NCBI GenBank assembly: GCA_001790815.1
Contig: MGDU01000010.1
Span: forward strand, 2,621-66,620
Source: Candidatus Uhrbacteria bacterium RIFCSPHIGHO2_02_FULL_46_47
GTDB lineage: Bacteria; Patescibacteriota; Patescibacteriia; GWA2-47-26
Direction: 5' to 3'
DNA length: 64,000 bases
Both the position numbers and the translations under genes were made by a program. The notes beneath the pieces are model-generated. The model was not told the origin of the DNA. It was given only the letters and a program-made list of their open reading frames with translations, and did not search any database. Shown here in pieces: positions 31,067-48,416 of the stretch; position 1 is the first letter of the stretch, and each line of letters begins with the position of its first letter.

Positions 31067-31175
31067 GTAGTCGCCGCTCTTTAGGCGGCGCGCAGGCTAA
31101 AGACCTGCGGCTACATATGGCACAAGTAGTCGCCGCTCTTTAGGCGGCGCGCAGGCTAAAGACCTGCGGCTACAT
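31067..31175. repeat. two tandem 60-bp copies of the family E REP/BIME-like element
   Basis: gtagtcGCCGCtctttagGCGGCgcGCAGGctaaagaCCTGCggctacatatggcacaag x2; the second copy ends 2 nt before the ATG at 31176. Confidence 0.8.
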
Positions 31176-31652
31176 ATGGCACAAGAAGAAAAACCAAAAA
31201 TAGTCCCAACTGAACAACCGCCGGAAATAGAAAAAATTCCTGAAGCGCCAAAAGAGGCGCCTGTCCTTGAGGTTCCAATGGAACGTCCGCCTGCGGAAAA
31301 AGAATTGCCGGCAAAAGCGCCGCCGCCAATTGCGCCGGCAGTGTTGCCGCCGGCAGTACCAGCAGATCCAGTGCTTAAGCAAATTGAAACAATCCTTGCG
31401 GAGGATTTGGAAGAGGTTTATGCGCAACTTCCGCCAGAGCTTAAGCCAAAGTTTAAGGTCAAGGGCGAGGAAGTCGCGAGCGCAATTCGCACTATGATGG
31501 CAACTGCCAAGATTAAAGCGCGCAAAGTATTAAAGCTCATTGCGCAGTGGCTCAAAATTATTCCGGGTGTGAACAAATTTTTTCTGGAACAAGAAGCCGC
31601 GATCAAAGCGCAGAAAATTATGGCTGTCGCGCAGGAGGAGAAGGAAGTATGA
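31176..31652 (+). CDS. Pro/Ala/Glu/Lys-rich protein, hypothetical
   Basis: 158 aa; a low-complexity PEAPKE/PPAV N-terminal half, then a helical C-terminal half. Confidence 0.5.
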   Translation: MAQEEKPKIVPTEQPPEIEKIPEAPKEAPVLEVPMERPPAEKELPAKAPPPIAPAVLPPAVPADPVLKQIETILAEDLEEVYAQLPPELKPKFKVKGEEVASAIRTMMATAKIKARKVLKLIAQWLKIIPGVNKFFLEQEAAIKAQKIMAVAQEEKEV

Positions 31653-31732
31653 TGCCAATATACGAATTTCATGCCAATCTACAAATTGCAAATTCGTATT
31701 TGTAGATTTGAATAAGATTTGTAGATTTGCAT
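31652..31732. repeat. family F intergenic element (ATGCCAATCTACGAATTTCATGCCAATCTACAAAT...ATTTGTAGATTTGAATAAGATTTGTAGATTTGCAT)
   Basis: Contains four TTTGTAGATT/AATCTACAAA half-sites in inverted arrangement. Begins at the stop of the upstream gene and ends 8 nt before the next ATG; copies at 40973 and 48320. Confidence 0.75.
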
Positions 31733-31739
31733 TACATTT

Positions 31740-34286
31740 ATGCTACAGTTCGCAATCAATATCACTCCGCCGGAAATACCATCCGCCGGATTTATCACGG
31801 CAGGAATTATTGTGGGATTTTATGGTGGCATTATTGCGGCCGTATTTGCCGCGCGCGCGGCATTGCGCTTTTGGTATAAAAAAGCCATTGGGCTTAAAAA
31901 AACTATTCTTCTTGTAAGCGTGCCAAAGGAGGCCGCTGAGAAAAAATCAGAACTTGAAAAACAAAAAGCGCTCCAAGAGATTCAAGAGGATATCGCGGTC
32001 GGGGAAAAATTATTTGCCGCAATCGGCGGTCTGCGAGCGGAGCGTGGAATTATCGCTTGGTTTTTAGGGCGTTCTGATCTTTTTTCATTTGAGATTGTTG
32101 TGAAGGGCGGATTAATTTGGTTTTATGTCGCGACCCACCCCAAATATAAAGATTATGTTATACAGCAAATCCAAGCGTTGTATCACAATGCTCAAGTTGA
32201 AGAAGTTGAGGACTATAATATTTTTACTTCCAAAGGCGCGATTGCCGGCGGCTATCTCACGCTTAAGCGTCCAACACTTTTTCCACTCAAAACTTATCGC
32301 AAACTTGAAGCTGATCCGCTTGATGGCTTAGCAAACGCGCTTTCACGTATTGATAAAGCAGATGGCGCGGCTATTCAGTTTGTCGTACGCTCCGCGCGCA
32401 AAAAATGGCGCAAGTACGGCGCAAAAGTTGCTATTGAAATGCAAAAAGGAAAAAGCGCGCATGAGGCAATGGCATCTATTTCAATATTTAAAGGATTTAG
32501 CAAAGCGTTTAAGACCAGTAAAAAAGGCCCGGGTGGAGCGCCAGCTGAGGAGCAATCAAAAAGATTTTTGTCAGCCATGGAGCAGGAACAGCAAAAAGCA
32601 ATTCAGGAAAAAGCATCAAAAGCCGGGCTGGACATGAATATCCGGGTGATAACCGCGGCAAAAACCGGAACACAAGCGCATGAATATCTAAAAAATATAA
32701 TGAACGCGTTTGTGCAGTATGATTGGTTTGAGTATGGAAACAGTTTTGGGAAATCCTATCCGCGCTTAACTTCGTTTATTGCGCGCGATTTTATTTATCG
32801 CGGCTGGCGTCAAAAGCGCCGCGTAACACTGGGCGCGGAAGAGGCGGCCTCGGTTTGGCATTTGCCGCTGCCTACCACTGAGACGCCGAATATCCGCTGG
32901 CTTCTCGCGCGTAAAGCGCCTGCGCCGGTAAATGTCCCCAAAGAAGGAATTACACTTGGCTACAATCGCTACCGCGGCATTGATACAGTGATAAAACTCA
33001 AACGCGATGATCGCCGGCGGCATCTCTACATTATCGGTAAATCCGGAACAGGAAAATCTGTGTTTATTGAAAATCTGGCAATTCAGGATATTCGCGCTGG
33101 CGAAGGCGTATGTGTGGTGGATCCGCATGGTGATTTGATTGAGCATATTTTGGCCGCGGTGCCCAAAGAACGGATTGATGATGTGATTATTTTTGATCCT
33201 TCGGATTTGGAGCGGCCGGTGGGGCTTAATATGCTGGAGGCAAAAGACGAAGGCACTAAGGATTTTGCCGTGCAGGAAATGATCGCGATTTTTTACAAAC
33301 TATTTCCTCCAGAAATGATTGGTCCGATGTTTGAACATAATATGCGCAATGTGATGCTCACGCTCATGTCAGATCCCAATGAAAATGGCACCATTGCGGA
33401 AATCCCGCGCATGTTTTCCGACGCGGATTATCAAAAGTTCTGGGTGGCCAAGCTTAAAGATCCGGTAGTGCGCGCGTTTTGGGAAAAAGAAATGGCAAAA
33501 ACCAGCGATTTTCATAAATCAGAAATGCTTGGTTACTTAATTTCAAAAGTCGGTCGATTTGTGGAAAACGCGATGATGCGCAATATTATTGGCCAGCAAA
33601 ACTCCGGCTTTGATATTCGCGAAGTCATGGATAAAAAGAAAGTGCTTTTGGTAAATCTTGCCAAAGGAAAAACCGGAGAGGTGAACTCCAATTTGCTCGG
33701 GCTTATTATTGTATCAAAACTGCAGATGGCGGCTCTTGGCCGCGCGGATTTGCCAGAGGCGGAGCGGCACGATTTTTATCTTTATATTGATGAGTTTCAA
33801 AACTTTATTACTGATTCTATTGCCACGATTTTATCTGAGGCGCGCAAATACCGTTTGTGTCTTATTATCGCGCACCAATATATGGGACAACTGTCTGGCG
33901 GAAAAGAAGGCGGACAAGATACCAAGATTCGTGATGCCGTGCTTGGAAATGCCGGGACCATGTCGTCATTTCGCATCGGCGTTGAAGACGCGGAAGTTAT
34001 GGCAAAAGAATTCGCGCCGGTATTTAATGAGTATGACATGATCAACATTGAGCAATATACGGCATACATAAAATTGTTGGTGGACAATCAATCAACCAGG
34101 CCGTTTAATATGCACACTTATCCGCCCATAAAAGGCGATCCAAAAATTGCCGAAGCAATAAAACAACTTTCGCGCCTGAAATACGGCCGCGATCGCGCGA
34201 TTGTGGAAGCAGAGATTTTGGAACGCTCGCAGTTGGGCGAGCCGGAGCGAACTGCCGGACCTTTGGTAGGGGAGCGCGGATTATGA
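31740..34286 (+). CDS. membrane-anchored FtsK/HerA-superfamily P-loop ATPase (DUF87/TraG-VirD4-like)
   Basis: N-terminal TM (ITAGIIVGFYGGIIAAVFAA), Walker A YIIGKSGTGKSVF, HerA/DUF87-type VVDPHGDL motif, Walker B LYIDEFQNF; 848 aa. Confidence 0.55.
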   Translation: MLQFAINITPPEIPSAGFITAGIIVGFYGGIIAAVFAARAALRFWYKKAIGLKKTILLVSVPKEAAEKKSELEKQKALQEIQEDIAVGEKLFAAIGGLRAERGIIAWFLGRSDLFSFEIVVKGGLIWFYVATHPKYKDYVIQQIQALYHNAQVEEVEDYNIFTSKGAIAGGYLTLKRPTLFPLKTYRKLEADPLDGLANALSRIDKADGAAIQFVVRSARKKWRKYGAKVAIEMQKGKSAHEAMASISIFKGFSKAFKTSKKGPGGAPAEEQSKRFLSAMEQEQQKAIQEKASKAGLDMNIRVITAAKTGTQAHEYLKNIMNAFVQYDWFEYGNSFGKSYPRLTSFIARDFIYRGWRQKRRVTLGAEEAASVWHLPLPTTETPNIRWLLARKAPAPVNVPKEGITLGYNRYRGIDTVIKLKRDDRRRHLYIIGKSGTGKSVFIENLAIQDIRAGEGVCVVDPHGDLIEHILAAVPKERIDDVIIFDPSDLERPVGLNMLEAKDEGTKDFAVQEMIAIFYKLFPPEMIGPMFEHNMRNVMLTLMSDPNENGTIAEIPRMFSDADYQKFWVAKLKDPVVRAFWEKEMAKTSDFHKSEMLGYLISKVGRFVENAMMRNIIGQQNSGFDIREVMDKKKVLLVNLAKGKTGEVNSNLLGLIIVSKLQMAALGRADLPEAERHDFYLYIDEFQNFITDSIATILSEARKYRLCLIIAHQYMGQLSGGKEGGQDTKIRDAVLGNAGTMSSFRIGVEDAEVMAKEFAPVFNEYDMINIEQYTAYIKLLVDNQSTRPFNMHTYPPIKGDPKIAEAIKQLSRLKYGRDRAIVEAEILERSQLGEPERTAGPLVGERGL

Positions 34287-34906
34287 TTCTTCTAACAGTT
34301 TTTTACGGTGTTTTCCTTTTGGGAATTGGTTTTTTAGGTTTTTCCATGCTTTCGAGTTTGCGCGCGGAGGCGCCGTATGTTCCAACCGGAAGGCGAGATT
34401 TGAAAAAAATCCTGGAAGCGGCGGAAATTAAACCCGGCGAAGTATTTTATGATTTAGGAAGCGGTGATGGCCGTGCTGTGCGCGCGGCGGCGCGTTTGGG
34501 TGCGCGCGCTGTGGGATTTGAACAGTCGTGGTTGCTGGTTTGGTGGTCGCGGCTGTGGTGGCGCACTGCCACCACCCGGCAGTGTGGATTCGGAAGGAAC
34601 GCAAGGGTCCTCTTTCGGCCTTCGGCCTGCAGACGCTCCCAATCCTTCCTCACCACACCGCCGAGCGTTGGCAGTGCTTCTTTTTTAAAAAAGAATTATT
34701 TACGGGAAAATTTGTCTGATGCGGATGTGATTTTTTGTTATTTAATGCCCAAAGCCATGGAACATTTGAAGGAAAAATTTGAAACCGAACTTAAGCCCGG
34801 TACGCGTATTTTTTCCCGTGCTTTTAAAATTCCGGGCTGGACGCCGCAGGCGCGTTTACAGTTTTCCCGCCGCGCCCCGCCGGTGTATGTGTATGTGAAA
34901 GAGTAG
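34283..34906 (+). CDS. class I SAM-dependent methyltransferase (with internal palindrome-rich insertion)
   Basis: Motif I VFYDLGSGDGRAVRAAARLGARAVGFE. The central about 50 aa (WWSRLWWRTATTRQCGFGRNARVLFRPSACRRS) are encoded by GC-rich hairpin DNA (34530-34680) and look inserted. Confidence 0.5.
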   Translation: MILLTVFYGVFLLGIGFLGFSMLSSLRAEAPYVPTGRRDLKKILEAAEIKPGEVFYDLGSGDGRAVRAAARLGARAVGFEQSWLLVWWSRLWWRTATTRQCGFGRNARVLFRPSACRRSQSFLTTPPSVGSASFLKKNYLRENLSDADVIFCYLMPKAMEHLKEKFETELKPGTRIFSRAFKIPGWTPQARLQFSRRAPPVYVYVKE

Positions 34907-34956
34907 CACACATTGCAAAATGGGAGACGTTGCGATGCGTTGAAAATATGCAAAAA

Positions 34957-34998
34957 CCGTGATTGTCAACTATTCACGATCGTGATAAACTGACAAGC
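34957..34998. promoter_or_regulatory. nested palindromic operator-like site (TGATTGTCA..TCACGATCGTGA..TGACAAGCA) immediately upstream of wHTH/Cas2-like paralog 2
   Basis: Ends 1 nt before the ATG at 35000. Confidence 0.55.
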
Positions 34999-34999
34999 A

Positions 35000-35620
35000 G
35001 TGAAGCACCCCAAAATTGAGCAAAAAAATATGAGTCTGAAATTAAAACTAAAACAGTGGGAAATTTCACTGTTGGAATGGGAACTTGCGCATCCTCAGGA
35101 AGAGAGTGTGCATGTGTCGCGTACTCGCAAGTGGACAAGCACTGGGCTTGGCCCCGAAGTCTATGCCGCGGAGCAACGCTATTGGACGCGCAAGAAATTG
35201 GTGGCCAAGCAAAAAATGCTTGCCCAGCGCCTCGCATACCTAAAGCGACATCATTATTTGGAGCGCGTTAAGGAAGCGGATCACACTTTTGAAAAACTGA
35301 CCGCGCGCGGAAAGTTTGAAGTATTGCGCCTTCAGTTCGCGCTGCATATGCAGGCACAGCGTCACAAACCATGGAATGGAAAATTTTATTTGGTGGTATT
35401 TGATATTCCGGAAACAATGCGCCGATATCGCGATTTTTTCCGAAAACTGCTGAAAAGCAACGGTTTTAAGTTCTTGCAGTTGAGCGTGTGGATGACGCGC
35501 TATGACCCGCGCCCGGCGCTTGACGATATAGTGCGTTATCTAAAATTGCAGATACATTATGAACTAATGGAAATTGATTGCGGCGGTTGCAGCCCGCGCG
35601 TGCAACGGAAGATTAGGTAG
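35000..35620 (+). CDS. winged-helix + Cas2-like domain protein, paralog 2
   Basis: C-terminal KFYLVVFDIPETMRRYRDFFRKLLKSNGFKFLQLSVWM (Cas2-like core); N-terminal Lys-rich plus a wHTH-like segment. Confidence 0.6.
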   Translation: MKHPKIEQKNMSLKLKLKQWEISLLEWELAHPQEESVHVSRTRKWTSTGLGPEVYAAEQRYWTRKKLVAKQKMLAQRLAYLKRHHYLERVKEADHTFEKLTARGKFEVLRLQFALHMQAQRHKPWNGKFYLVVFDIPETMRRYRDFFRKLLKSNGFKFLQLSVWMTRYDPRPALDDIVRYLKLQIHYELMEIDCGGCSPRVQRKIR

Positions 35621-35642
35621 TTTGTGCGAAAATCTCCAAAAA

Positions 35643-35687
35643 TGTGATTGTCAAATACTCACGATCGTGATAAACTGACAATCAGTG
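35643..35687. promoter_or_regulatory. nested palindrome TGATTGTCA-N21-TGACAATCA with central TCACGATCGTGA (direct repeat of the 34957 site)
   Basis: tgattgtcaaatactcacgatcgtgataaactgacaatca. Confidence 0.55.
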
Positions 35688-35732
35688 CCGCATGTGATTT
35701 GCGAGTTTTTGTGACAGGATAAAAAACTTTCT

Positions 35733-35768
35733 AAATTAAAAGAAGCGCGTCCTGCGAAGCAGGCGCGC
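35733..35768 (-). terminator. rho-independent terminator (minus strand) for the AIRS-family gene
   Basis: Minus-strand GGCGCGCCTGC-ttc-GCAGGACGCGC followed by TTCTTTTAATTT. Confidence 0.5.
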
Positions 35769-35780
35769 CTAGAAACCTTC

Positions 35781-36896
35781 TTAACGAACGCCCAAGGTTG
35801 AACCGTCGTACTCCAGTCCCTTGGGTTGGATGACCACTTTCTTTTCTTCGCCGCGCTTTTCGATGTGGCCGGCGCGCATGGCTTTGAAATCGCACTGCTC
35901 GGCAAGTGTGATTACCTGTTCCACATCGGCCGTTGGTACATAAAGCGCAAAACCCGCGCCCATGTTGAAGTTGCCGTACATCTCTGTGTCGTTTACCGGA
36001 CCGCACTCCTGGATGAAGCGAAAGATCGGCTGGGGTTCCGGGATTTTTTCCAGCAGATACACGAACGGTTCGCGCGCGCGCATGAGCTTGCGCCAGCCGT
36101 GTCCGGTGATGTTCACCGTGTAGTGTATACTCACGCCATGGTTGAGGCAATCCTCAACAAGTGCGACGTAGATGTATGTCGGATCCAGCAGTGCCTCACC
36201 GTATGTCCGCCCATCAGGAAGCTGAGTGAGATATCCTTCGGGCAAATTGTCGGCAATCGTCCGCGCCATCGTGAGGCCGTTCGCGTGAATCCCGGAACTC
36301 TCGACAAGAACGATCGCGTCGCCGTGTTGGATTTTGCTCGGTGTGATGAGTCGTTCTTTAGGCTGCACCAGGCCGATCGCCGAACCGGAAAGTACCACTG
36401 CTTCGGGTACCACTACACCCTTGAGTGTTGGTGTTTCACCGCCGCCCCAGACACAGCGGGCGAGTATGCACGCTTGTTTCCATCCATGGATTAGATCACT
36501 ACAACGTCGCGTGTCTTGGAACCAATCGGACGCGCCAACCGCAAGATGCATCGCCACCGAAAGCGGCAGAGCACCAAGCGTGATCATATCGTTTACGATC
36601 ATCGCCACAGTGTCCTGTGCAATCTGGTCGTAATAGGACTTGCCGGTGAGTTTGTACATCGCGTCGGCAACGAGATTCTTCGTACCCAGCCCTTCCTCAA
36701 CATGGGCAAGGAAACGGTCACCGGCGTCGATGAGGTACGCGCTCTCACCGCGACTCATTAGAACTTCCGATAAACCGAGTCGAGCGACGTTGATTGCTGT
36801 TTCCATCGCGGCAAGTTGTGCCTCGCGCTTGAACGGATCCATGGCATCGTAGTCCACACCTGTACCGGCGTAGGTTATTGCCTGTTTCTCGCTCAT
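35781..36896 (-). CDS. AIR synthase-related (PurM-like) ATP-binding protein
   Basis: N-terminal YAGTGVDYDAMDP resembles the PurM N-terminus (YKDAGVDIDAGN); two-domain PurM/ThiL/HypE-family layout; 371 aa. Confidence 0.55.
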   Translation of the reverse strand: MSEKQAITYAGTGVDYDAMDPFKREAQLAAMETAINVARLGLSEVLMSRGESAYLIDAGDRFLAHVEEGLGTKNLVADAMYKLTGKSYYDQIAQDTVAMIVNDMITLGALPLSVAMHLAVGASDWFQDTRRCSDLIHGWKQACILARCVWGGGETPTLKGVVVPEAVVLSGSAIGLVQPKERLITPSKIQHGDAIVLVESSGIHANGLTMARTIADNLPEGYLTQLPDGRTYGEALLDPTYIYVALVEDCLNHGVSIHYTVNITGHGWRKLMRAREPFVYLLEKIPEPQPIFRFIQECGPVNDTEMYGNFNMGAGFALYVPTADVEQVITLAEQCDFKAMRAGHIEKRGEEKKVVIQPKGLEYDGSTLGVR

Positions 36897-37037
36897 AGTC
36901 GCACTCTTTCTCCTACTTGTGCGTGGATTTGAGTCAATGATCTACTAGCCAGCCCCATGATATTAACATAATTCCTTACAGTTGCAAAATGCGTGGTGCC
37001 GTGGTACGCTGTAAATAGACAAATACCCATACAAAAT

Positions 37038-37574
37038 ATGCCAAACAAAAATGATGAGCTTGCCTTACAGCTTGCGGAATTTCGAAAAAAAATTGATGCG
37101 GCGCAGAAGATGATGGAGCAGGGCGATGTAGAGCAAGCTGAGGCATTCATAGCTGATTTGCGCGCGCACAGTCATGCCACGCAACCCACCCCAGTGCCGG
37201 ATGGGAGTCGTATAATTGAAGGCGTGTTTGACGGACAGCGCATGATTGGCGCGGACGGAAAACAGTATTTAGTGCCGCCAAATTATGCGTCGAAGTCAAA
37301 GTTGGTGGAGGGTGATATGATGAAGCTCTCTATAACTTTGCAAGGCGCGTTTATTTATAAACAAATCGGACCTATTGAGCGCAAACGAGTGGCATGCACG
37401 CTCACCAAAGATGGCGAGGGATTGTGGCATGCAACTGATGGCGTGCATGAATGGCGCCTTTTGACTGCGGCAGTAACATTTTTTAAAGGCAAAGCCGGAG
37501 ATGAGGTAATTATTTTCTTGCCAGGCGATGCTCCCTCAAAATGGGCAGCAGTGGAAAACATTATTGCAAAATAA
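37038..37574 (+). CDS. hypothetical protein
   Basis: 178-aa ORF; start moved to the Met after the promoter-like region (ORF track 36993). Confidence 0.45.
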   Translation: MPNKNDELALQLAEFRKKIDAAQKMMEQGDVEQAEAFIADLRAHSHATQPTPVPDGSRIIEGVFDGQRMIGADGKQYLVPPNYASKSKLVEGDMMKLSITLQGAFIYKQIGPIERKRVACTLTKDGEGLWHATDGVHEWRLLTAAVTFFKGKAGDEVIIFLPGDAPSKWAAVENIIAK

Positions 37575-37577
37575 TCT

Positions 37578-39224: not shown

Positions 39225-39234
39225 CAGTGAAAAT

Positions 39235-39900: not shown

Positions 39901-39927
39901 ATGTTATACTAAATGGGGAATCATATG

Positions 39928-39960
39928 AATGTAAAATGTAAAATGAAAAATGTAAAATTA
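39928..39960 (+). promoter_or_regulatory. family G element (three TGTAAAAT boxes) at the start of the 39943 gene
   Basis: gaaTGTAAAATGTAAAATgaaaaaTGTAAAATta. Confidence 0.45.
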
Positions 39961-40971
39961 TTGCGCCTCGCTCAGTGTGCATTTTTAATTTTTAATTTTA
40001 CATTTTTAATTCAATTTGCACAGGGCGGTGAATTTGAGGTTGATTTGGGACTGCGTTTCGAAGATATTTTGATAGTGCCAGCCTTACCTATTGCTGGACA
40101 AACTGCGCGTATATACGCGACCGTGCATAATTTTGGAACCAAAGATGCTTTAGGAAAAGTTTCATTTTATCAAGGGCCATTTCTTATTGGTCAGTTACAG
40201 ATTGTATCTGTTAAGGCGCAAGGATTTGCCGATGAAGTATTTATTGATTTTACGGTGCCGGACGGCCCATTTAATATCTTGGTCAAATTAAGTGAAATAT
40301 CTCCTGCCGACCAAAATTCAGGCAATGACGATACAGTGACTCCGCTTAAAGAACCGCTCCCGGATCAAGATCATGATGGGATTATTGATGAACGCGATAG
40401 TTGTATTTCAGTTGTAAATGCGGACCAAGCAGATCACGATGGAGATGGACGTGGAGATGCGTGTGATCCGGATTCTGATAATGATGGACTCGCAGATATT
40501 GACGAAGTCGCGCGCGGATTAAATCCGTTGAATCCCGATACTGATAATGATGGTATGATTGACAGTAAAGATCCGCATCCTCTCAAAGCCGATCCTTCGC
40601 CGCTAGCAAAGAAAGATACGCCGGTAAAAGTCGCAAAAGTTACAGAGACGCAAAAATCACAGTCTGGCGGTGCGGCAGTGGAGGGTGCAAAAAATGATAA
40701 TGCAGCTTCGGAAACTATGGTAGACACGCGCAGTACACCTGAGGCATCAGCTCCGCTTGCCACAGCAGTGCTGGATAAGGAAGATTCTGTACGCGCGGAA
40801 GAAGAATCAATTATTTCAGCTGAATACGCGACTATAATTACGCCGCAGACAAAAATTCCGAAAATACCGCGCGGAGGTTTTTCAAAGCTTTGGGTTGCAG
40901 CCGTATTTTCTACAATATTTGCAGGCGTATTTTCATTTTTAGCGCTGCGTATGAAAACTCCCAAAGAATGA
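39943..40971 (+). CDS. secreted membrane-anchored protein with thrombospondin type 3-like Ca-binding Asp repeats
   Basis: Signal MKNVKLLRLAQCAFLIF. Repeats DQDHDGIIDERD / DHDGDGRGDACDPDSDNDGLADIDE / DTDNDGMIDSKD; C-terminal TM (LWVAAVFSTIFAGVFSFLAL). Confidence 0.6.
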   Translation: MKNVKLLRLAQCAFLIFNFTFLIQFAQGGEFEVDLGLRFEDILIVPALPIAGQTARIYATVHNFGTKDALGKVSFYQGPFLIGQLQIVSVKAQGFADEVFIDFTVPDGPFNILVKLSEISPADQNSGNDDTVTPLKEPLPDQDHDGIIDERDSCISVVNADQADHDGDGRGDACDPDSDNDGLADIDEVARGLNPLNPDTDNDGMIDSKDPHPLKADPSPLAKKDTPVKVAKVTETQKSQSGGAAVEGAKNDNAASETMVDTRSTPEASAPLATAVLDKEDSVRAEEESIISAEYATIITPQTKIPKIPRGGFSKLWVAAVFSTIFAGVFSFLALRMKTPKE

Positions 40972-40972
40972 A

Positions 40973-41053
40973 ATGCCAATCTACGAATTTCATGCAAATC
41001 TACAAATCGCGAATTTGTATTTGTAGATTTGAATAAGATTTGTAAATTTGCAT
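40973..41053. repeat. family F intergenic element, copy 2 (immediately upstream of murJ)
   Basis: atgccaatctacgaatttcatgcaaatctacaaatcgcgaatttgtatttgtagatttgaataagatttgtaaatttgcat. Confidence 0.75.
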
Positions 41054-41057
41054 TGTC

Positions 41058-42710
41058 GTGGTTCAATGGTTCAATTCTAAAATAGAAAGCATTGCAGGTG
41101 CCGCGGTAATTTTGGCCGGGGCATCTTTCGCATCTAAAATTTTAGGGCTGCTGCGCAATCGCGTGCTTGCTGGCGCGTTTGGCGCTTCAGATACGCTGGA
41201 TGCTTATTATGCCGCCTTCCGCATTCCGGACGCAATTTTTCAGTTTGTGGTCTTAGGCGCGCTCTCGGCCGGGTTTATTCCGGTATTTATGGAGTTGATG
41301 GCGCACACCCCCTCACCTCAATCCTCTCCCTCAGGGAGAGGGCAGGGTGAGGGCAATTCTCAGTGGCAAGTGGCTTCAACCGTGCTAAACGCGCTCGTCA
41401 TAATTCTTGCCGTTTTTGCCACGGTCTTTGCAATTTTCGCTCCACAGCTTCAAATGCTTATTGCCCCCGGATTTAATGGCGAAAAACTCGCGCTGACCAT
41501 ACAATTCGCGCGCATCATGGCGCTTAGCCCTATTTTTTTGGGAATCTCCGCGGTATTTTCCGGAATTTTGCAATCCTATCGCCGTTTTGTAATTTACGCG
41601 CTGGCCCCGCTTTTTTATAATGTAGGCATAATTTTCGGCGCGCTTTGGCTTGTGCCGATTTTTGGAGTTTTGGGATTGGCACTTGGCGTTGTAATAGGCG
41701 CGCTAATGCACATGGCCGTGCAAATTCCAAATGTGCGCCGTGTTGGATTTCGCTGGCGGCCTATTTTAGATTTAAAAAGCCAAGCCGTACGCAAAATCGG
41801 AGTGCTTTCCATGCCGCGCTTGCTTGGTTTGGCTGTAACTCAAGTCAATTTATTCGCGATTACACTTTTAGCTTCAAAATTGTCTTCCGGAAGTTTGTCA
41901 ATATTTAATCTGGCAAATGACATTCAAAGCGTACCCATAGGACTTTTTGCGATTTCCCTTGCCACCGCCGCGTTTCCGGCCTTTTCCGAATTTGCCACGC
42001 GTAAAGATAACGATGGATTTAGAAAAAGTTTTTCTTCTACGGCGCGCCTCATTTTGTTTTTAACCATTCCATTTGCCATCCTGCTTTTGCTTTTGCGGGC
42101 CCAAGTTGTACGCGTGCTTTTGGGGTCCGGAAAATTTGATTGGGCAGATACTATAGCTACCGCGGACACGCTTGCATTTTTTAGCTTAAGTTTGTTTGCC
42201 CAGGCGCTATTGCCCCTTTTGGCACGCGCATCCTACGCATTGAAGGATACATTGTCGCCGCTTCTGGCCGGTGCCGCAGGAGTCGCGGCCAATGTCATAC
42301 TCGCTTTGTATTTTCGCGGACCTTTTGGGATTGCCGGGTTGGCGCTTGCGTTTTCATTCGCGATGCTTATAAATTTAGGGATACTTTGGCTTATGCTTCG
42401 TGCGCGTCTGCGCTCGCTTGACGAGGCGCAAATTGTTCCCGCGCTTTTTAAAATCTCCGGAGCGGCGCTGGCCATGGCACTTGTCGTGCAGGCCACAAAG
42501 TATTGGCTTGCCCCGCAAGTGAATATGCAAACCGGGGTAGGAGTTTTAACGCAAGGATTTGTCTCGGGCACCCTCGGTCTTACTGTATTTTTAATTACCG
42601 CGCTGGCCATGGGCTCAGACGAAGCCCGCGCCATTAAGAATGCTTTTACCAAGCGCCTTTTCCGCGGGAAAGATGTCCGGCCAGTGGAAATCGTGGAGCC
42701 CCGCGGATGA
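41058..42710 (+). CDS. murJ: lipid II flippase MurJ (MviN)
   Basis: GTG start; N-terminal ASKILGLLRNRVLAGAFGASDTLDAYYAAFRIPD is the MurJ signature and the protein has about 14 TM segments. A family C element is inserted in-frame (HTPSPQSSPSGRGQGEGNSQ). Confidence 0.85.
   Translation: MVQWFNSKIESIAGAAVILAGASFASKILGLLRNRVLAGAFGASDTLDAYYAAFRIPDAIFQFVVLGALSAGFIPVFMELMAHTPSPQSSPSGRGQGEGNSQWQVASTVLNALVIILAVFATVFAIFAPQLQMLIAPGFNGEKLALTIQFARIMALSPIFLGISAVFSGILQSYRRFVIYALAPLFYNVGIIFGALWLVPIFGVLGLALGVVIGALMHMAVQIPNVRRVGFRWRPILDLKSQAVRKIGVLSMPRLLGLAVTQVNLFAITLLASKLSSGSLSIFNLANDIQSVPIGLFAISLATAAFPAFSEFATRKDNDGFRKSFSSTARLILFLTIPFAILLLLLRAQVVRVLLGSGKFDWADTIATADTLAFFSLSLFAQALLPLLARASYALKDTLSPLLAGAAGVAANVILALYFRGPFGIAGLALAFSFAMLINLGILWLMLRARLRSLDEAQIVPALFKISGAALAMALVVQATKYWLAPQVNMQTGVGVLTQGFVSGTLGLTVFLITALAMGSDEARAIKNAFTKRLFRGKDVRPVEIVEPRG
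41308..41352. repeat. family C palindromic element in-frame in murJ
   Basis: cccctcacctcaatcctctccctcagggagagggcagggtgaggg. Confidence 0.8.
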
Positions 42711-42779
42711 TACGTGGGGCGGGATTGACAAAATAGGGTAAGAAGCGCAGGGTGGAAGTAGTTCCTAGGAGGAAAAATC

Positions 42780-43736
42780 ATGCAATCACGGCCAAGGCGC
42801 ACTCTCTATCAAGATAGGACATGGCTTAAGGTGCGGCTAAAGCGCGGCTTGACCGCGCCTCAGATTGCAAATCAGGTCAAAGTCAGCACGCCTACCATAA
42901 CACGATGGATCGCGATTCATGACCTTGTTGGATGTTCCTTGCGCGCGATTTGTCGCAATTATCTGAACAGACGCGCGCGGGCAACCTATGCCAATAGAGC
43001 GTGGCTTCGCGCAGAACTTGCGGCAGAACACACCTACAAAGAGATTGCCAAAAAGGTAGGCGTTTATCCGCTTACCATTGCCAATTGGGCCTTGCGGTTC
43101 AAGTTGGCTAATGGGCACCTTTCTCATACTGCCACTTGTACCTACGCCAATCAGAAGTGGCTGGCCGCCCAGATTGCGCGCGGGTTTCTTGATAGGCAAA
43201 TTGCTCACGAAACCGGCGTAACAGCTCACACTATAGAATATTGGCGCAAGCAGTTTGGCATCAGGTGCCCGCCGCGGCAGCGACCACCGAGAAATCTGAA
43301 GGAGCGGCGTGCTTTTGGGACGTGGCTTGCGCCGCGCCTGCATCGCTTAGCGCTCCCGGAGACACAAGGCGCTGCCCTTTGCGCGTATTACGCAGTAAAC
43401 GGCACTTTCTGTGAGCAGAAGCAATTGGCACAAGAGCAGGGAGTGACTCCGCATGGTATTGATTATCGCAGAACCAAAGCACTTGCGGTCATACTGGATA
43501 CCTTTGGCATGGGACAGCTCGCAAGATTTCCGGAGATAGTTAAGCGACGAAAAACACTTCAAGCGTTTGTGCCAAAGAAACAAACACACACGCTACGCAC
43601 ATATCGTGATAAGGCGTGGCTTAGGGCGCGCGTTGCGCGCAACTTATCCGACAAGCAAATCGCGAGCGAGGTTGGAAACACTAGTTTTACAACTATCGCG
43701 CATTGGCGTCGATCTTTTGGGATCACAAGGAGGTAG
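42780..43736 (+). CDS. protein built from tandem helix-turn-helix repeats (5-6 units, about 46 aa each), IS3-OrfA-like HTH
   Basis: Repeats of the form Y.N..WL...LA....K(E/Q)IA...GV...TI..W...FGI (e.g. YANRAWLRAELAAEHTYKEIAKKVGVYPLTIANWALRF). No transposase catalytic domain follows. Confidence 0.55.
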   Translation: MQSRPRRTLYQDRTWLKVRLKRGLTAPQIANQVKVSTPTITRWIAIHDLVGCSLRAICRNYLNRRARATYANRAWLRAELAAEHTYKEIAKKVGVYPLTIANWALRFKLANGHLSHTATCTYANQKWLAAQIARGFLDRQIAHETGVTAHTIEYWRKQFGIRCPPRQRPPRNLKERRAFGTWLAPRLHRLALPETQGAALCAYYAVNGTFCEQKQLAQEQGVTPHGIDYRRTKALAVILDTFGMGQLARFPEIVKRRKTLQAFVPKKQTHTLRTYRDKAWLRARVARNLSDKQIASEVGNTSFTTIAHWRRSFGITRR

Positions 43737-43893
43737 CGTTGAATTCATATGCCGACCGCGTCATCCCAGCGGCCGGCCTTATTTTTGACAATAAAGCGGT
43801 GTGGGCATTTTTTTATAAATACCGCATTCTCCAATTCGCGCGAATTGGAGAATGCATTCTGCGATTCTGCGGAATTGCGGAATGATGGCGGAA

Positions 43894-44300
43894 TAAAAAA
43901 AGCGCCCACCCCGAGAGTCCATTGGGTGGGCATTTACGCCGTGCGATCATGCAATGTGCCTGTTCCCAGGCCTGCTCCAGGTCCCACTGGAGAGAGGGCG
44001 GGCTCTCGTCGGTCTCAATGAGCCCTAGTTGCTGATGCACTTGTGGCTAGCTGTACTGTACGACCTTGCGGTCGGAAGGAGCAAATAAAGGGCGCCGGGT
44101 TCACCGCCGGTACGGCGCCCGAGAAACAATTACGGTGCGGGGAGTACCGGACTCCCACACAGAGCCGAGTCGTGCGCGTTCACGATCTCGGAGCATTCCA
44201 GCACGCCTAGTTGGCTCCCTTGCGAGAGTTGACCGCGCATCGGTCGTGCCGGCGGCCATTTTAAGGCCCACACATTTTTCTTATTTTTGACTTTTACTTC
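43894..44300 (-). ncRNA. candidate structured ncRNA of about 400 nt, family unassigned (RNase P RNA-like size, motifs inconclusive)
   Basis: Minus-strand consensus -35 TTGACA (44331-44336), 17-nt spacer, -10 TAAACT (44308-44313). The 0.6-kb gap has no credible ORF, is GC-rich and full of perfect hairpins including GNRA/GGAA tetraloops. It ends in a strong minus-strand terminator (43894-43931). Confidence 0.4.
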
Positions 44301-44307
44301 TGAATGC

Positions 44308-44336
44308 AGTTTAGCATAATCTGAATGCCTTGTCAA
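44308..44336 (-). promoter_or_regulatory. sigma70-like promoter (-35 TTGACA / -10 TAAACT) driving the minus-strand ncRNA
   Basis: The palindromic core CTTGTCAAG also supplies TTGTCA as a -35 for the plus strand, with TATGGT as a -10 just before lepA. Confidence 0.45.
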
Positions 44337-44366
44337 GGGGGGTAGAAATGGGGTATGGTGGGAGAC

Positions 44367-46337
44367 ATGGAACAATCGAAAATTCGGAATTTTTGCATTA
44401 TCGCCCATATTGATCATGGAAAGTCCACGCTCGCGGATCGGTTTTTGGAATTGACCGGAACAGTAGAAAAGCGGCAGATGAAAGAACAGCTTTTGGATCA
44501 GATGGATATTGAACGCGAGCGCGGCATCACTATCAAACTCGCTCCAGTCCGCATGAACTACGTACTACATACTACCCCCTACGTACTTAACCTAATTGAC
44601 ACCCCCGGCCACGTTGACTTCACTTACGAAGTTTCGCGTTCACTGGCGGCAGTGGAAGGCGCGATTTTACTGGTTGATGCAACTCAAGGCGTGCAAGCCC
44701 AAACTATTGGTAATCTTTATCTTGCGCTAGAGCAAAATCTCACAATTATTCCAGTGGTAAATAAAATTGATTTGCCCAGTGCCGATGTTGCTAAGACAAA
44801 GGCAGAACTCATGCATTTAATCGGATGCAAAGAAGAGGAGATTTTGGCAGTTTCCGGACGAACTGGTGAAGGTGTGCCGGAATTGTTGGAGGCGATTGTG
44901 GAACGCGTGCCAGCCCCTCACCCCAACCCTCTCCCACAAGGGGAGAGGGAGTTACAGAAATACCCCACTCCCTTAATGGGAGGGGATAAAGGGGGGGGTG
45001 TTTCGCTTCGGGCCTTAATCTTTGACTCCATTTATGACACGTATCGCGGAGTGGTGGCGTATGTGCGGGTATTTGACGGTGAAATAAAAAAGGGCGAGAA
45101 AATCATTTTCATGGCCACCAAGGCGCAAAGCGAAGCGCTGGAAGTTGGATTTTTCAAACCAAAATTTGTTCCCTCCGATTCACTTGGAGCCGGTGAGATC
45201 GGTTATATTGTGACTGGGCTTAAAGATATTGCCGGATGCCGCGTTGGAGATACTATTACGGGCTACACGCTACACGCTACAAGCTACACGGTTGAACCCC
45301 TTCCCGGCTATAAAGAAGTAAAACCCATGGTGTTTGCCGGAATTTTTCCAAAAGTAGGGGATGAGTATTCGCAACTGCGCGAGGCCATGGGAAAACTCAA
45401 ACTCAATGACGGCGCGCTTAGCTATGAGCCGGAAAAATCCACTGCGCTGGGATTTGGATTCCGCTGCGGATTTTTAGGACTTTTACATTTGGAAATTGTA
45501 GAAGAGCGTTTGCGTCGCGAGCATAACGTTGAAGTAATTACAACAGTTCCATCTGTGGCGTATCGGGTTAGCAAAACTGATGGTCAAGTGATGATAATCA
45601 AAGGCGCGCAGGAATTGCCTGATCAAAATTATATTCAAAAAATTGAAGAGCCGTGGGTCAAAATTGATGTGGTGGTGCCAAAAAAATACATTGGCGGAGT
45701 GATGCAGTTGGTACAAGAGAAAAGGGGAGTGTATGTGAATACGGAGTACATGCTACCCTCACCCCAACCCTCTCCCATAAGGGGCGAGGGAGAAAATCAG
45801 GTTCCCTCTCCCTCCATGGGAGAGGGAGATTCGGCCATGGACGAATCGGGTGAGGGGCGCGTAATTTTGCATTACGAACTCCCGCTTGCCTCAATTCTTG
45901 TGGATTTTTATGATAAACTCAAAAGCGTTTCTTCTGGTTATGCCTCGCTCAATTATGAATTGACCAAATACAAGGAAGCAGATGTGGTGCGACTTGATAT
46001 TTTAGTGGCTGAAGATCAGGTTGAGGCGCTGGCCACGGTTGTTTATAGCGATAGCGCGCAAGACTCGGGTCGTAAAATTGTGGAGGCGCTTAAAAAAACT
46101 TTGCCGCGCCAGCAATTTGAAATTAAAATCCAGGCCGCGCTGGGCGGAAAAATTATTGCTTCCGAACGCATTTCACCTTTGCGCAAAGATGTGACGGCCA
46201 AGCTTTATGGCGGCGATGTGACGCGCAAAATGAAACTTTTGGAAAAACAGAAAAAAGGCAAGAAAAAAATGGCGGCCATGGGCCACGGGGCAGTGGATAT
46301 TCCACCAGCGGCCTACCTTGCGGTACTGAAACGTTGA
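44367..46337 (+). CDS. lepA: elongation factor 4 (LepA) with two in-frame palindromic insertions
   Basis: MEQSKIRNFCIIAHIDHGKSTLADR (G1), DTPGHVDF (G3), NKID (G4). Family C insertions encode PAPHPNPLPQGERELQKYPTPLMGGDKGGGVS and LPSPQPSPIRGEGENQVPSPSMGEGD... Start taken at the homologous Met (ORF track 44355). Confidence 0.9.
   Translation: MEQSKIRNFCIIAHIDHGKSTLADRFLELTGTVEKRQMKEQLLDQMDIERERGITIKLAPVRMNYVLHTTPYVLNLIDTPGHVDFTYEVSRSLAAVEGAILLVDATQGVQAQTIGNLYLALEQNLTIIPVVNKIDLPSADVAKTKAELMHLIGCKEEEILAVSGRTGEGVPELLEAIVERVPAPHPNPLPQGERELQKYPTPLMGGDKGGGVSLRALIFDSIYDTYRGVVAYVRVFDGEIKKGEKIIFMATKAQSEALEVGFFKPKFVPSDSLGAGEIGYIVTGLKDIAGCRVGDTITGYTLHATSYTVEPLPGYKEVKPMVFAGIFPKVGDEYSQLREAMGKLKLNDGALSYEPEKSTALGFGFRCGFLGLLHLEIVEERLRREHNVEVITTVPSVAYRVSKTDGQVMIIKGAQELPDQNYIQKIEEPWVKIDVVVPKKYIGGVMQLVQEKRGVYVNTEYMLPSPQPSPIRGEGENQVPSPSMGEGDSAMDESGEGRVILHYELPLASILVDFYDKLKSVSSGYASLNYELTKYKEADVVRLDILVAEDQVEALATVVYSDSAQDSGRKIVEALKKTLPRQQFEIKIQAALGGKIIASERISPLRKDVTAKLYGGDVTRKMKLLEKQKKGKKKMAAMGHGAVDIPPAAYLAVLKR
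44914..45000. repeat. family C palindromic element in-frame in lepA (1 of 2)
   Basis: cccctcaccccaaccctctcccacaaggggagagggag...gggaggggataaaggggggggtg. Confidence 0.8.
45756..45857. repeat. family C palindromic element in-frame in lepA (2 of 2)
   Basis: ccctcaccccaaccctctcccataaggggcgagggag...ctccatgggagagggag...gggtgagggg. Confidence 0.8.
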
Positions 46338-46458
46338 TGATATAGTATTCAACCATTATGAAACGCAAGACATTTCAGCGTGCCTGGACAGTAGTCGTAA
46401 TCATTATGATTGCGGCGATGATTTTATTTACCATCGTGCCGTATCTGTTCTAGTGAAC

Positions 46459-46481
46459 GCCGGCTAAAGACCGGCGACTAC
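46459..46481. repeat. family E REP-like half element (single hairpin + GACTAC) 8 nt upstream of recJ
   Basis: GCCGGctaaagaCCGGCgactac. Confidence 0.65.
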
Positions 46482-46488
46482 ATTTAAT

Positions 46489-48315
46489 ATGGAAAAGAAT
46501 TGGGTACTTTTGGAAAACGCGCCGGAGGATTGGCAAGGTCAAATGCCAGAGGTGTCTGCTATTTTGCGGCAGATTTTGTGGACTCGTGGATTGCGAACTA
46601 AGGCCGAGGCAGAACAATTTTTACATCCTAGTTTTGAAAAGGATCTGCATGATCCTTTTTTGTTTAAGGACATGGAAAAAACAGTGGCGCGGCTGTTTGC
46701 GGCAATTGAGAAAAAGGAGAAAATTTTTGTGTATGGCGATTATGACGCGGATGGCGTACCGGGCGCGGCTATTTTGAAAACTACCCTGGACGCGCTTGGC
46801 GCGGTTACGGATATTTATATTCCGCATCGCGAAAAAGAAGGATATGGACTAAATAGCGGCGCCATTGCCTATATGGCCGAGCAAAATGGCAAGATAGTGA
46901 TTACTTGCGACTGTGGGATTAGCAATGCGTCAGAAGTGGCTGAGGCGCGCGCAAAAGGAATTGATGTAATCATCACTGACCATCATCGCATACCTGAAAT
47001 AGTACCCAAACCATTTGCAATTTTGCATCCATTAATTCCCGGAGAAAAATATCCGAACAAGTTTTTAACCGGCGGTGGCGTGGCGTATAAGCTGGCGTGC
47101 GCGCTTTTACAAACCGCGCATAACTCCCCCCAACCCCCTCTTACCTTAAGAGGGGGAGAGGATCTTGAAGGATTTGAAAAGTGGTTGTTGGATTTGGTGG
47201 CCATATCAACTGTGGCGGATGTGGGGAAACTTCTGGATGAGAATCGAACGCTTGTAAAATATGGACTTACCGTACTTAACAAAACCCGCCGGCTAGGTTT
47301 GCAAAAACTTATTGAAGCCGCAGGAATAAAGCTGGGTGCGCTAGACACTTATTCAATCGGCTGGCAAATCGCTCCGCGTATCAATGCCGCCGGCCGCATG
47401 GATCATGCCAATGCCGCTTTTCAATTGCTGATGGCCACTGACGCGGAAGAAGCGCAGCGTCTTGCGGCACAGTTGAACGAATCAAATGTGGCGAGACAAA
47501 AGGAAACCGATCGCGCGTTAAAGGAGGCGAGGGAACAAATTATGAAGGGATTACTCTCACCTCAATCCTCTCCCATAAAGGGAGAGGAAGTAACGCAACC
47601 CCCCTCGCACCTTGCGGGAGAGGGTCGGGGTGAGGGGGAATTACCGTACCTCCTTGCCGCGTATAATCCTTCCTGGAATCCCGGAGTGATTGGGTTGGTA
47701 GCTGGACGGCTTATGGAAGAATTTCGGCGGCCGGTACTTATCTGCACGCGCAATGAAGGCGGAAAATTTATGGCCTCGGCACGATCAATTTCAGAATTTA
47801 ATATTATTGAAGCGCTCGCCTCATCAAAAGAATATCTTTTGAAATTTGGCGGGCACCCCAAAGCCGCTGGTTTTTCTGTTGAAAGCGAAGAGAAATGGCA
47901 TGCACTTATTGCGCATTTGCAGGAACTCGCGCACAAAGCGCTCCATGCTGTTGATGTGCGGCCAACGCTCTATATTGACGCGGATCTTATACTTGCGCAA
48001 GTAGATTGGAATTTAGTTTCTGATGTGCAAGCGCTTGAGCCGTGCGGGGAAGGCAATCCGCGTCCGCGGTTTTTAATACATGGCATAACCGTGCTTGGAT
48101 TTGATACTGTAGGAAATGGCGGGAAGCACTTGCGTCTTACGGTTACTGATGAAACGCAAAAGCCGCGCAAAATGATTGGATTTAATTGTGGAAGCTGGTG
48201 CGAGCGGTTAAAAATCGGCGACTTGATTGATGTGGTCGTTGAAGTTGGAGTAAATGAATGGAATGGAAATCGTGATATTGAGATGCGAATTGTGGATTTA
48301 AGATTCCATCAATAA
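46489..48315 (+). CDS. recJ: single-stranded-DNA-specific exonuclease RecJ (DHH family) with two in-frame palindromic insertions
   Basis: VYGDYDADGVPGAAIL, ITDHH (DHH motif), DHHA1 region GGHPKAAG; insertions AHNSPQPPLTLRGGEDLEG and LSPQSSPIKGEEVTQPPSHLAGEGRGEGE. Confidence 0.85.
   Translation: MEKNWVLLENAPEDWQGQMPEVSAILRQILWTRGLRTKAEAEQFLHPSFEKDLHDPFLFKDMEKTVARLFAAIEKKEKIFVYGDYDADGVPGAAILKTTLDALGAVTDIYIPHREKEGYGLNSGAIAYMAEQNGKIVITCDCGISNASEVAEARAKGIDVIITDHHRIPEIVPKPFAILHPLIPGEKYPNKFLTGGGVAYKLACALLQTAHNSPQPPLTLRGGEDLEGFEKWLLDLVAISTVADVGKLLDENRTLVKYGLTVLNKTRRLGLQKLIEAAGIKLGALDTYSIGWQIAPRINAAGRMDHANAAFQLLMATDAEEAQRLAAQLNESNVARQKETDRALKEAREQIMKGLLSPQSSPIKGEEVTQPPSHLAGEGRGEGELPYLLAAYNPSWNPGVIGLVAGRLMEEFRRPVLICTRNEGGKFMASARSISEFNIIEALASSKEYLLKFGGHPKAAGFSVESEEKWHALIAHLQELAHKALHAVDVRPTLYIDADLILAQVDWNLVSDVQALEPCGEGNPRPRFLIHGITVLGFDTVGNGGKHLRLTVTDETQKPRKMIGFNCGSWCERLKIGDLIDVVVEVGVNEWNGNRDIEMRIVDLRFHQ
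47125..47161. repeat. family C-like palindromic element in-frame in recJ (1 of 2)
   Basis: ctccccccaaccccctcttaccttaagagggggagagg. Confidence 0.7.
47556..47638. repeat. family C palindromic element in-frame in recJ (2 of 2)
   Basis: ctcacctcaatcctctcccataaagggagagg...cttgcgggagagggtcggggtgaggggg. Confidence 0.8.
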
Positions 48316-48319
48316 TATG

Positions 48320-48408
48320 ATGCCAATATACGAATTTCATGCCAATCTACAAATAACAAATAATTCATTCGCAATTCGTAGATTAGCATAAGATTTGTAG
48401 ATTTGCAT
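48320..48408. repeat. family F intergenic element, copy 3 (immediately upstream of rnhA)
   Basis: atgccaatatacgaatttcatgccaatctacaaataacaaataattcattcgcaattcgtagattagcataagatttgtagatttgcat. Confidence 0.75.
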
Positions 48409-48416
48409 CATATTTT

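Follow-up and report, generated by a model that had tools for sequence, protein, structure and literature searches.

A probably mobile family of palindromic repeats in tight stop-start gene junctions of Patescibacteria

Introduction

Short palindromic elements between bacterial genes are known in several kinds. Correia elements (Correia repeat enclosed elements, CREE) are miniature inverted-repeat transposable elements (MITEs) of Neisseria, approx. 100-150 bp in length, palindromic, non-coding and dispersed in intergenic DNA, which are co-transcribed as hairpins, vary in presence between strains and insert at TA sites. The enterobacterial repetitive intergenic consensus sequences, or intergenic repeat units (ERIC/IRU), and the Yersinia palindromic sequences (YPAL) of enterobacteria are imperfect palindromes of approx. 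100-170 bp in transcribed intergenic regions of operons and are thought to affect stability or processing of messenger RNA (mRNA). Integron attC sites, including the Vibrio repeats (VCR), are imperfect palindromes of 57-141 bp placed after a stop codon and before the next open reading frame (ORF); they have fixed polarity and conserved unpaired bases and are used as folded single strands. Tc1/mariner transposons of the Sleeping Beauty inverted repeat/direct repeat (IR/DR) type are eukaryotic, 1.6 kb long, encode a transposase and carry two direct binding repeats in each inverted terminal arm. Here we describe family F, a palindromic repeat present in three copies in a stretch of 64,000 nt (hereafter, the window) from contig MGDU01000010.1 of Candidatus Uhrbacteria bacterium RIFCSPHIGHO2_02_FULL_46_47, and in further contigs of the Candidate Phyla Radiation (CPR, Patescibacteria). 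We consider it probable that family F is a non-coding, non-autonomous mobile palindrome, similar in kind to MITEs or to repetitive extragenic palindromic (REP) sequences. Our best reading is that tight stop-start junctions are its target, or the only places where it survives, and that it is co-transcribed there as an mRNA hairpin.

Three copies at gene junctions

The copies in the window are imperfect palindromes of 81-89 nt, all on the + strand, and were grouped by the repeat finder as a single family (D12). With the core defined as the span from ATGCCAAT to TTTGCAT, copy 1 occupies positions 31652-31732 (conserved block 31648-31736; covariance model 81.9 bits, E-value 9e-18), copy 2 positions 40973-41053 (block 40969-41057; 74.7 bits) and copy 3 positions 48320-48408 (block 48316-48412; 106.8 bits), the E-values of the three ranging from 1e-16 to 1e-24. 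Pairwise identities over ungapped columns are 0.90, 0.90 and 0.86; with the 8 additional bases that copy 3 carries close to the loop, the values across all columns are 0.78-0.90. The 400-nt flanks of the copies gave self-matches only and are mutually unrelated, therefore the copies are not segmental duplications.

Each element consists of a 16-mer, TTC, a second 16-mer, a loop, a third 16-mer, AAG and a fourth 16-mer. The two left 16-mers form a direct repeat, of which the two right ones are the inverse; every 16-mer is made of two NNNCNAAT octamers, and the 16-mers within an arm are spaced at a 19-nt period. The outer-left 16-mer has diverged (ATGCCAATATACGAAT). Thus, in copy 1 the left arm (31652-31686) comprises ATGCCAATATACGAAT (31652-31667), TTC and ATGCCAATCTACAAAT (31671-31686), and the right arm (31698-31732) comprises ATTTGTAGATTTGAAT (31698-31713), AAG and ATTTGTAGATTTGCAT (31717-31732). 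The left arms of copy 2 (40973-41007) and copy 3 (48320-48354) likewise consist of two 16-mers with a TTC joint, and the right arms (41019-41053 and 48374-48408, respectively) an AAG joint, the right arm of copy 3 being ATTCGTAGATTAGCAT, AAG and ATTTGTAGATTTGCAT. Ten of the 12 matches to TTTGTAGATT in the window (at most one mismatch) fall inside the three copies. The conserved block of the family extends from TATGATGCC to GGCATCAYA, and that of copy 1 from TATGATGCC to GCATTACA.

The arms being inverted, single-stranded DNA or mRNA of family F gives an imperfect hairpin of approx. 38 bp. RNA of the + strand folds into one long imperfect stem (-26.7 to -32.3 kcal/mol, z-scores -4.4 to -6.1), and the minus strand folds about equally well, with no bias of hairpin stability to the sense strand. 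The RNAalifold consensus slipped out of register, and the consensus structure was therefore set by hand. The G+C content of the elements is 0.26-0.35.

Every copy fills the space between two genes on the + strand. At copy 1, ATGCCAAT opens with the A of the TGA (31650-31652) that closes an upstream ORF (31176-31652; 158 aa, no Pfam match), and the core ends 7 nt short of the ATG at 31740 of a gene for a TrwB/HerA-like ATPase (31740-34286), which has no Shine-Dalgarno sequence. The core of copy 2 begins 1 nt past the TGA (40969-40971) of a gene for a TSP_3-repeat protein (39913-40971) and ends 4 nt before the GTG at 41058 of murJ (41058-42710), a start backed by alignment to the MurJ N-terminus of a syntenic relative (locus L060). 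The core of copy 3 begins 4 nt past the TAA (48313-48315) of recJ (46489-48315) and ends 8 nt before the ATG at 48417 of an rnhA-like RNase H gene (48417-48863). The RNase H protein is identical to one from Candidatus Uhrbacteria bacterium RIFCSPLOWO2_01_FULL_47_24, and the window matches contigs from the Rifle aquifer. Shine-Dalgarno sequences are missing from the genes downstream of the copies; GGAGG does precede some other window genes.

Junctions of at most 25 nt make up 2.9% of the non-coding bases of the window, yet they hold all three copies (left-over spacer at most 4 nt). Under uniform insertion into non-coding DNA, the probability of this placement is approx. 2.5e-5 with crude gene calls; an element for which any non-coding DNA will do therefore fails to explain it.

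Distribution of the family

A 22-nt word from the left arm matched nine stretches in contigs representing one genome per species, and a 21-nt word matched 44 stretches in metagenomes of the Joint Genome Institute (JGI). The 21-nt word had no match in IMG/VR, and no family F match was obtained in the phage collection and the plasmid collection. The exact-word scans gave 28 distinct full elements, 27 of which were aligned; the covariance model (R1) found copies lacking the exact word and brought the total to 47 distinct elements in diverse CPR metagenome contigs and metagenome-assembled genomes (MAGs). Short word matches in loci L014, L021, L033, L039 and L049 were treated as chance. Up to 5-7 copies per 8 kb occur in loci L007 and L015, and near-identical copies precede unrelated genes. 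The elements are 81-125 nt long and non-coding, and are AT-rich throughout, with host G+C contents from 0.33 to 0.61. A short coding ORF (MPIYEFHANLQ...) was rejected, as its second codon varies (CCA, CGA, CAA, CTA) and so do the positions of the stop.

Subfamilies are found in which the octamers have changed jointly on both arms (ATACGAAT/ATTCGTAT and ATGCGGAT/ATCCGCAT). Paired cells of the alignment amount to 85%, versus 25-41% with the partners slid (palindrome control), and one stem pair is G-C in 37 copies, A-T in 10 and broken in none. Family F is present in several CPR lineages as co-evolving subfamilies. Some MAG labels look wrong, namely 'Gammaproteobacteria' (CAZVIU01, CAYTPE01) and 'Saccharibacteria' (CAYJUW01, CAZCSJ01), which concerns loci L007-L010, L013, L015 and L063; at least CAZVIU01 and CAYJUW01 hold genes and synteny similar to those of Uhrbacteria or Sungbacteria, with gene content and best protein matches pointing to Parcubacteria. 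We therefore claim a spread over several lineages of Patescibacteria and not over named phyla.

Placement at a stop-start junction was observed for 38 of the 47 copies with crude ORF calls, a junction being scored where an ORF of at least 60 codons ends from -10 to +5 nt of the TATGATGCC...GCATCAYA block and another starts from -3 to +16 nt of its other end. The remaining copies are at locus edges or at operon starts. In approximately 12 copies the TGA within TATGATGCC is itself the stop of the upstream gene. Relative to the genes, 30 copies are forward and 8 reverse, and the reverse copies also lie between a stop and a start. The densest case is the S10/spc ribosomal-protein operon of locus L015, where copies occupy the L23|L2, L2|S19, S19|L22, L16|L29 and L14|L24 junctions and two other palindrome families fill further ones; most junctions of the operon are occupied. 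Downstream genes have no common function and include rplX, rplD, rpsG, rpsD, pyrG, clpP, atpH, a rodA-like gene, murJ and rnhA.

The first-pass annotation of this stretch had described three copies more than 85% identical upstream of the 31740 ATPase gene, murJ and rnhA, with half-sites in inverted arrays and exact placement between a stop and the next start. These points are borne out by the identities of 0.86-0.90 over ungapped columns, the two 16-mers per arm, and stops that overlap the core or precede it by 1-4 nt, with starts 4-8 nt after it. The claim of a constant orientation is true of the window (3/3) and fails for the family (approx. 30:8). Random positions and recent segmental duplication, both raised in that annotation, are contradicted by the 38 junction copies, the placement probability in the window and the unrelated flanks.

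Several observations concern partial or related elements. A left arm alone lies directly behind a TATAAT box in L017 (120-171), in L023 (minus strand) and in L056 (1753-1800), an arrangement kept in 3/3 genomes. In L017 and L023 it is approximately 15-35 nt upstream of a transfer RNA (tRNA) gene, tRNA-Leu(TAG), and in L056 no tRNA was called, with only the 5' part matching; the conservation of the lone arm before tRNA-Leu is partly forced by the search word. In L036 (3215-3250), half an element is located within a minus-strand ORF call of 409 aa, being either an in-frame remnant or a sign of two genes merged by the caller. A sibling family of AATGTAAAATG-type heptamers has a full inverted array at 55365-55443 of the window, exactly between two + strand genes and with the same architecture as family F, and occurs also at 13024, 15329, 20646 and 39922. 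Lastly, an inverted array of GAATCAN/ATAATTC units at 59100-59189, a weak match to the covariance model of family F (23.5 bits), covers both the end of a pilin-like ORF and the beginning of the one that follows.

Orthologous sites without the element

Locus L060 has the same gene order as the window and an RNase H 72% identical to that of the window; no copy of family F was found within its 20 kb. At the recJ|rnhA junction L060 reads TGA-T-ATG, with stop and start 1 nt apart, whereas the corresponding sequence of the window, TAA-T-ATG-(ATGCC...GCATCATATTTT)-ATG, is longer by a net 100 nt. Another relative (L063) has an AT-rich spacer of 25 nt at this junction. The five ribosomal-protein junctions filled in L015 are all empty in L065 (L2 protein 82% identical), where the genes are -4 to 8 nt apart and no Shine-Dalgarno sequence is present. 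Different palindrome subfamilies or families are found at L015-occupied junctions in L066 (L2 92% identical) and L064; unrelated palindromes, among them AATCAGCG arrays and TAGAGAC/TAATCTC arrays, stand in L064 at junctions that family F holds elsewhere (5769-6000, 6820-6930 and 9931-10001). At the murJ junction, L060 has an unrelated perfect hairpin of 19 bp (4415-4485 in L060). A search for empty sites among the scanned loci themselves returned identical duplicates only. The empty sites show that family F was inserted into previously tight gene junctions; it has spread to many unrelated ones.

Among young copies, conservation starts at TATG and ends at CAYA. Many copies are flanked by TATG or ATG direct repeats and by TA dinucleotides. 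The outer bases co-vary with the element, and a right-hand CACA common to several copies argues that they travel with it. Of 12 Uhrbacteria-type copies, 9-10 are followed by a gene that starts with ATGC, a start seen in only 6 of 37 other window genes; a target preference near the start codon may lie behind this difference.

Candidate enzymes

A gene for a Y1 transposase similar to the REP-associated tyrosine transposases (RAYT) is located at 158-904 of the window (+ strand; Pfam Y1_Tnp, 43 bits; NCBIfam REP_Tyr_transpos, 46.8 bits, under the family cut-off), and a homologue 41% identical to its product is encoded in L027 (1515-2249). Both genes are flanked by palindromes other than family F, GGAAGCTSAGCTTCC and TGTACATCACTSAGTGATGTACA, and each is also broken in frame by its own flanking palindrome family. 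The GGAAGCTSAGCTTCC palindromes lie at 174-188, 356-396, 909-947 and 62245-62279 in a REPtron-like layout, the doublet at 62245-62279 being inside an ORF (61740-63830); in L027 a different cognate palindrome is inserted at the same place as in the window gene. The RAYT-like gene with its own repeats shows that mobilisation of hairpin repeats exists in this genome. As a mobiliser of family F we rejected it and its homologue on account of the other repeats that flank them.

Two further candidates were discarded. A small GIY-YIG nuclease gene (18495-18758) lies within 22-nt inverted repeats (18471-18766), with TATG on both outer sides and directly before the next start, and a similar gene is found in L015 (585-1049) in an interrupted inverted repeat of approx. 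60 nt between rplC and rplD; there are only two such genes in all loci, and the window protein always occurs in one context. A protein of 318 aa with five tandem helix-turn-helix modules (42780-43736) was rejected as a binding partner, as it has only 4 homologues among 5.8 billion proteins. Compared with L060, its gene and two small ORFs are an insertion between murJ and lepA.

Other repeats and gene starts

Apart from family F, the window is rich in repeats. A palindromic repeat CCCTCACCCCAACCCTCTCCC..GGGAGAGGG is in frame in the conserved ORFs of cysS (28866-28936), lepA (44915-44985 and 45756-45826) and recJ (47554-47624) and encodes PSPQPSPxRGEG..PSPxMGEG; the L060 orthologue has no such repeat at both LepA sites and a shorter unrelated sequence instead. 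These repeats look like in-frame insertions resembling Rickettsia palindromic elements. REP-like doublets with GTAG...CTAC ends, of the kind known as REPINs (REP doublets forming hairpins), were seen at 31067-31184, 11074-11144, 11541-11607, 46457-46481 and 57630-57715; the ORF ahead of copy 1 has two tandem copies of a 59-nt GTAG...CTAC unit immediately upstream of it. Direct repeats with CACGATCGTG palindromes (34953-35007 and 35638-35692) flank a gene with a PaaX_M/Cas2-like domain (35000-35620), and similar palindromes (26765-27654) surround a second such gene (26981-27628). An ORF of 3207 aa (1026-10649) with internal repeats of approx. 2.1 kb and 300 nt (families D1-D7) probably encodes a giant surface protein.

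As for translation signals, a GGAGG-type Shine-Dalgarno sequence precedes only about 10 of 54 window genes. An extended -10 box (TGnTATAAT) lies 5-8 nt ahead of the ATG in many window genes, e.g., those starting at 19056, 48882, 57156, 57761 and 58323, which suggests leaderless mRNAs; the base before most ATG starts is T.

Discussion

Family F has several of the traits by which MITEs are recognised: it is small (under approx. 600 bp) and non-coding, the whole element is an inverted repeat, its copies are dispersed, and it is present or absent at orthologous sites. With 38 of 47 copies in stop-start junctions, a MITE with specificity for gene junctions, one of three possibilities named in the first-pass annotation, accordingly fits best. 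How such an element could enter an operon may be pictured as follows. Its ends would mimic the overlap motifs of stops and starts (ATGA, TGATG), its own TGA would act as the upstream stop in about a third of the copies, and the downstream (T)ATG would stay 3-8 nt past the stem, so that insertion would be tolerated in Shine-Dalgarno-poor operons that rely on translational coupling. The element would be transcribed with the operon, and the hairpin would hold stop and start near each other. The four 16-mers, which could be binding sites for a mobilising enzyme, may represent the recognition sites of a putative enzyme acting in trans, as in transposons of the IR/DR type.

A number of points weigh against a mobile palindrome, or limit the data on which it is based. 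No autonomous partner and no transposase with family F ends came to light when orphan arms were searched in approximately 0.6 Mb of loci for a longer element, and the palindromes around the two RAYT-like genes are of other families. The one clean empty site for the window lineage, in L060, is compatible with a target-site duplication of (T)ATG, of TA, or with none. The exact-word scans bias the sample toward a conserved left arm, and the metagenome scan is not exhaustive, as the JGI contig of the window itself was not returned. Finally, different palindrome families recur at one junction across related genomes, the polarity of the element (TTC versus AAG) is conserved, and its orientation relative to the genes is biased 30:8; these three features could mean selection for function, not pure selfishness.

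A bolder version of the mobile palindrome, which we put forward as a speculation with fairly long odds, would make family F and its siblings a class whose integration is specific to stop/start junctions, perhaps through hairpin-dependent recombination on a (T)ATG/TGA core, with the stem bridging both codons so that coupling survives an insertion of 100 nt. If this is true, stem bridging would be a bacterial counterpart of ribosome shunting in CPR bacteria, which are poor in Shine-Dalgarno sequences and prone to leaderless transcripts.

Function could, however, be primary. Family F may be a domesticated mRNA hairpin, the upstream stop being at the 5' foot of the stem and the downstream start 3-8 nt beyond the 3' foot. 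It would then promote re-initiation by a shunt-like coupling, or serve as an RNase III-type site of processing or stability that sets the ratio of cistrons; this we regard as unlikely, though it is the alternative that survives best. It is consistent with the stop in or beside the first stem pairs and the start free just past the stem, with the lack of Shine-Dalgarno sequences in the downstream genes, and with the relatives lacking the element, in which the spacers at five ribosomal-protein junctions (-4 to 8 nt) imply coupling by proximity. The filling of the same junctions by unrelated palindrome families in related genomes, the occupation of most junctions in one ribosomal-protein operon and the orientation bias together with the conserved polarity point the same way. 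Close relatives, however, manage without the element at the same junctions, the stability of the hairpin is not biased to the sense strand, half elements and reversed copies occur, and an inverted repeat at the DNA level explains the covariation equally well. GC skew could not separate a replication-linked from a transcription-linked orientation, the two being confounded. The structured RNA leader suggested in the first-pass annotation is supported in part, by the long hairpin and by a co-transcription that is unavoidable; a coherent set of downstream genes and an Rfam family are missing. In Rfam the only match at gathering score was a tRNA, a permissive search gave generic miRNA-hairpin models far under their cut-offs, and no terminator-like G+C-rich stem with a T run was found within the three copies.

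A more specific form of the mobile palindrome, a REPIN-type element moved as single-stranded hairpin DNA by a Y1 (RAYT or IS200-like) transposase, seems improbable to us. The RAYT-like gene of the window and its homologue in L027 speak for it, as do the hairpin of family F, its conserved polarity, its orientation bias and the lack of a clear target-site duplication, all of them traits of Y1-mobilised elements. Against this, the repeats that flank both genes are GGAAGCTSAGCTTCC and TGTACATCACTSAGTGATGTACA, the units of family F do not have the form of a small hairpin headed by a 5' tetranucleotide, and the window protein scores under the cut-off of the NCBIfam family.

It is very doubtful that family F is a portable promoter facing outward, with an arm end (TTnGCA, 17 nt, CATCAT) from which a leaderless transcript would begin at the ATG of the downstream gene. 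The left arms of both copy 1 and copy 3 do contain a promoter-like TTGGCA-17-CATCAT preceded by TG, and the right arm has its mirror site 4-7 nt ahead of the ATG, similar to the TGnTATAAT-to-ATG spacing of many window genes. The sites that score, however, point away from the downstream gene and antisense into the upstream one, the right-arm versions (TTAGCA or TTTGAA; CATTAC or CATTGT in copies 1 and 2) did not reach the threshold of the scan, a C at -12 fits a -10 box poorly, and a promoter before every ribosomal-protein cistron is implausible.

We give even less credence to an operator array for a multimeric DNA-binding regulator of a regulon, a role that the first-pass annotation had also offered. 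Such an array could account for the four 16-mer sites in direct-direct-inverted-inverted order and for the lone left arm that is kept just after TATAAT, before tRNA-Leu, in three genomes. The unrelated functions of the downstream genes, the location of copies within operons and far from promoters, and the different unit sequences of sibling families at the same junctions nevertheless disqualify gene regulation of this type, and the sole multi-helix-turn-helix protein nearby is the one with four homologues. Chance similarity, or recent segmental duplication of the three junctions, is refuted by the unrelated flanks, the E-values of 1e-16 to 1e-24 and the dozens of copies in other genomes.

CPR genomes are seen as streamlined, yet even in the S10/spc operon their junctions hold palindromes of approx. 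100 nt from several families. Nature offers here a clean test of how far long hairpins between cistrons are compatible with translational coupling and with expression of the operon, and the placement of family F points to an insertion mechanism with the precision of a single junction. In practical terms, the repeats cause miscalled gene starts (e.g., at a TTG inside the right arm) and merged ORFs, and could be used as strain markers.

Relation to described elements

Family F and the Correia elements are alike in being about 100-150 bp long, non-coding, palindromic, dispersed and variable in presence between strains, in forming co-transcribed hairpins, and in the TA that flanks many copies. They have no sequence similarity; family F is nearly confined to tight junctions between a stop and a start, it has arms of tandem octamers, TA is only one of the target-site duplications that would fit, and no partner insertion sequence is known. 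With ERIC/IRU and YPAL it shares imperfect palindromes inside operons, whereas sequences and hosts are unrelated and family F lies much more strictly between stop and start.

REP/REPIN-RAYT systems (REPtrons) resemble family F in having extragenic palindromes in inverted doublets and single-strand hairpins, and a RAYT-like gene is present in the window. Family F, however, does not flank the RAYT-like genes, its 16-mers have no internal hairpin and the whole element is one long stem. REP units are hairpins of 20-40 nt with a conserved 5' tetranucleotide, while in family F GTAG is inside the unit and not at its head.

An attC site is likewise a palindrome straight after a stop and before the next ORF, with fixed polarity and unpaired bases that are conserved. 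Family F lacks the RYYYAAC/GTTRRRY core (its ends are TATGATGCC...GGCATCATA) and is dispersed in housekeeping operons, not arranged in a cassette array beside intI. To the IR/DR elements of the Tc1/mariner group the likeness is an analogy of layout only: the four-site arrangement is the same, family F is approx. 90 bp long and no such transposase was found. Tandem interspaced guide RNA (TIGR) arrays of TIGR-Tas systems are tandem, with a 36-nt period, edge and loop repeats and variable spacers, beside a gene for a Nop-domain Tas protein (PMC12045711). This identity was rejected, as copies of family F are single, dispersed, without variable spacers and beside housekeeping genes.

We found no description of family F in the searchable literature. 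Elements of this kind (MITE-, REP- or ERIC-like) are well known; what is new is the precision with respect to gene junctions and a possible role in coupling. We regard family F as a new family of small, probably mobile palindromic repeats, whose arms consist of octamers in tandem and which are found almost nowhere but in tight stop-start junctions.

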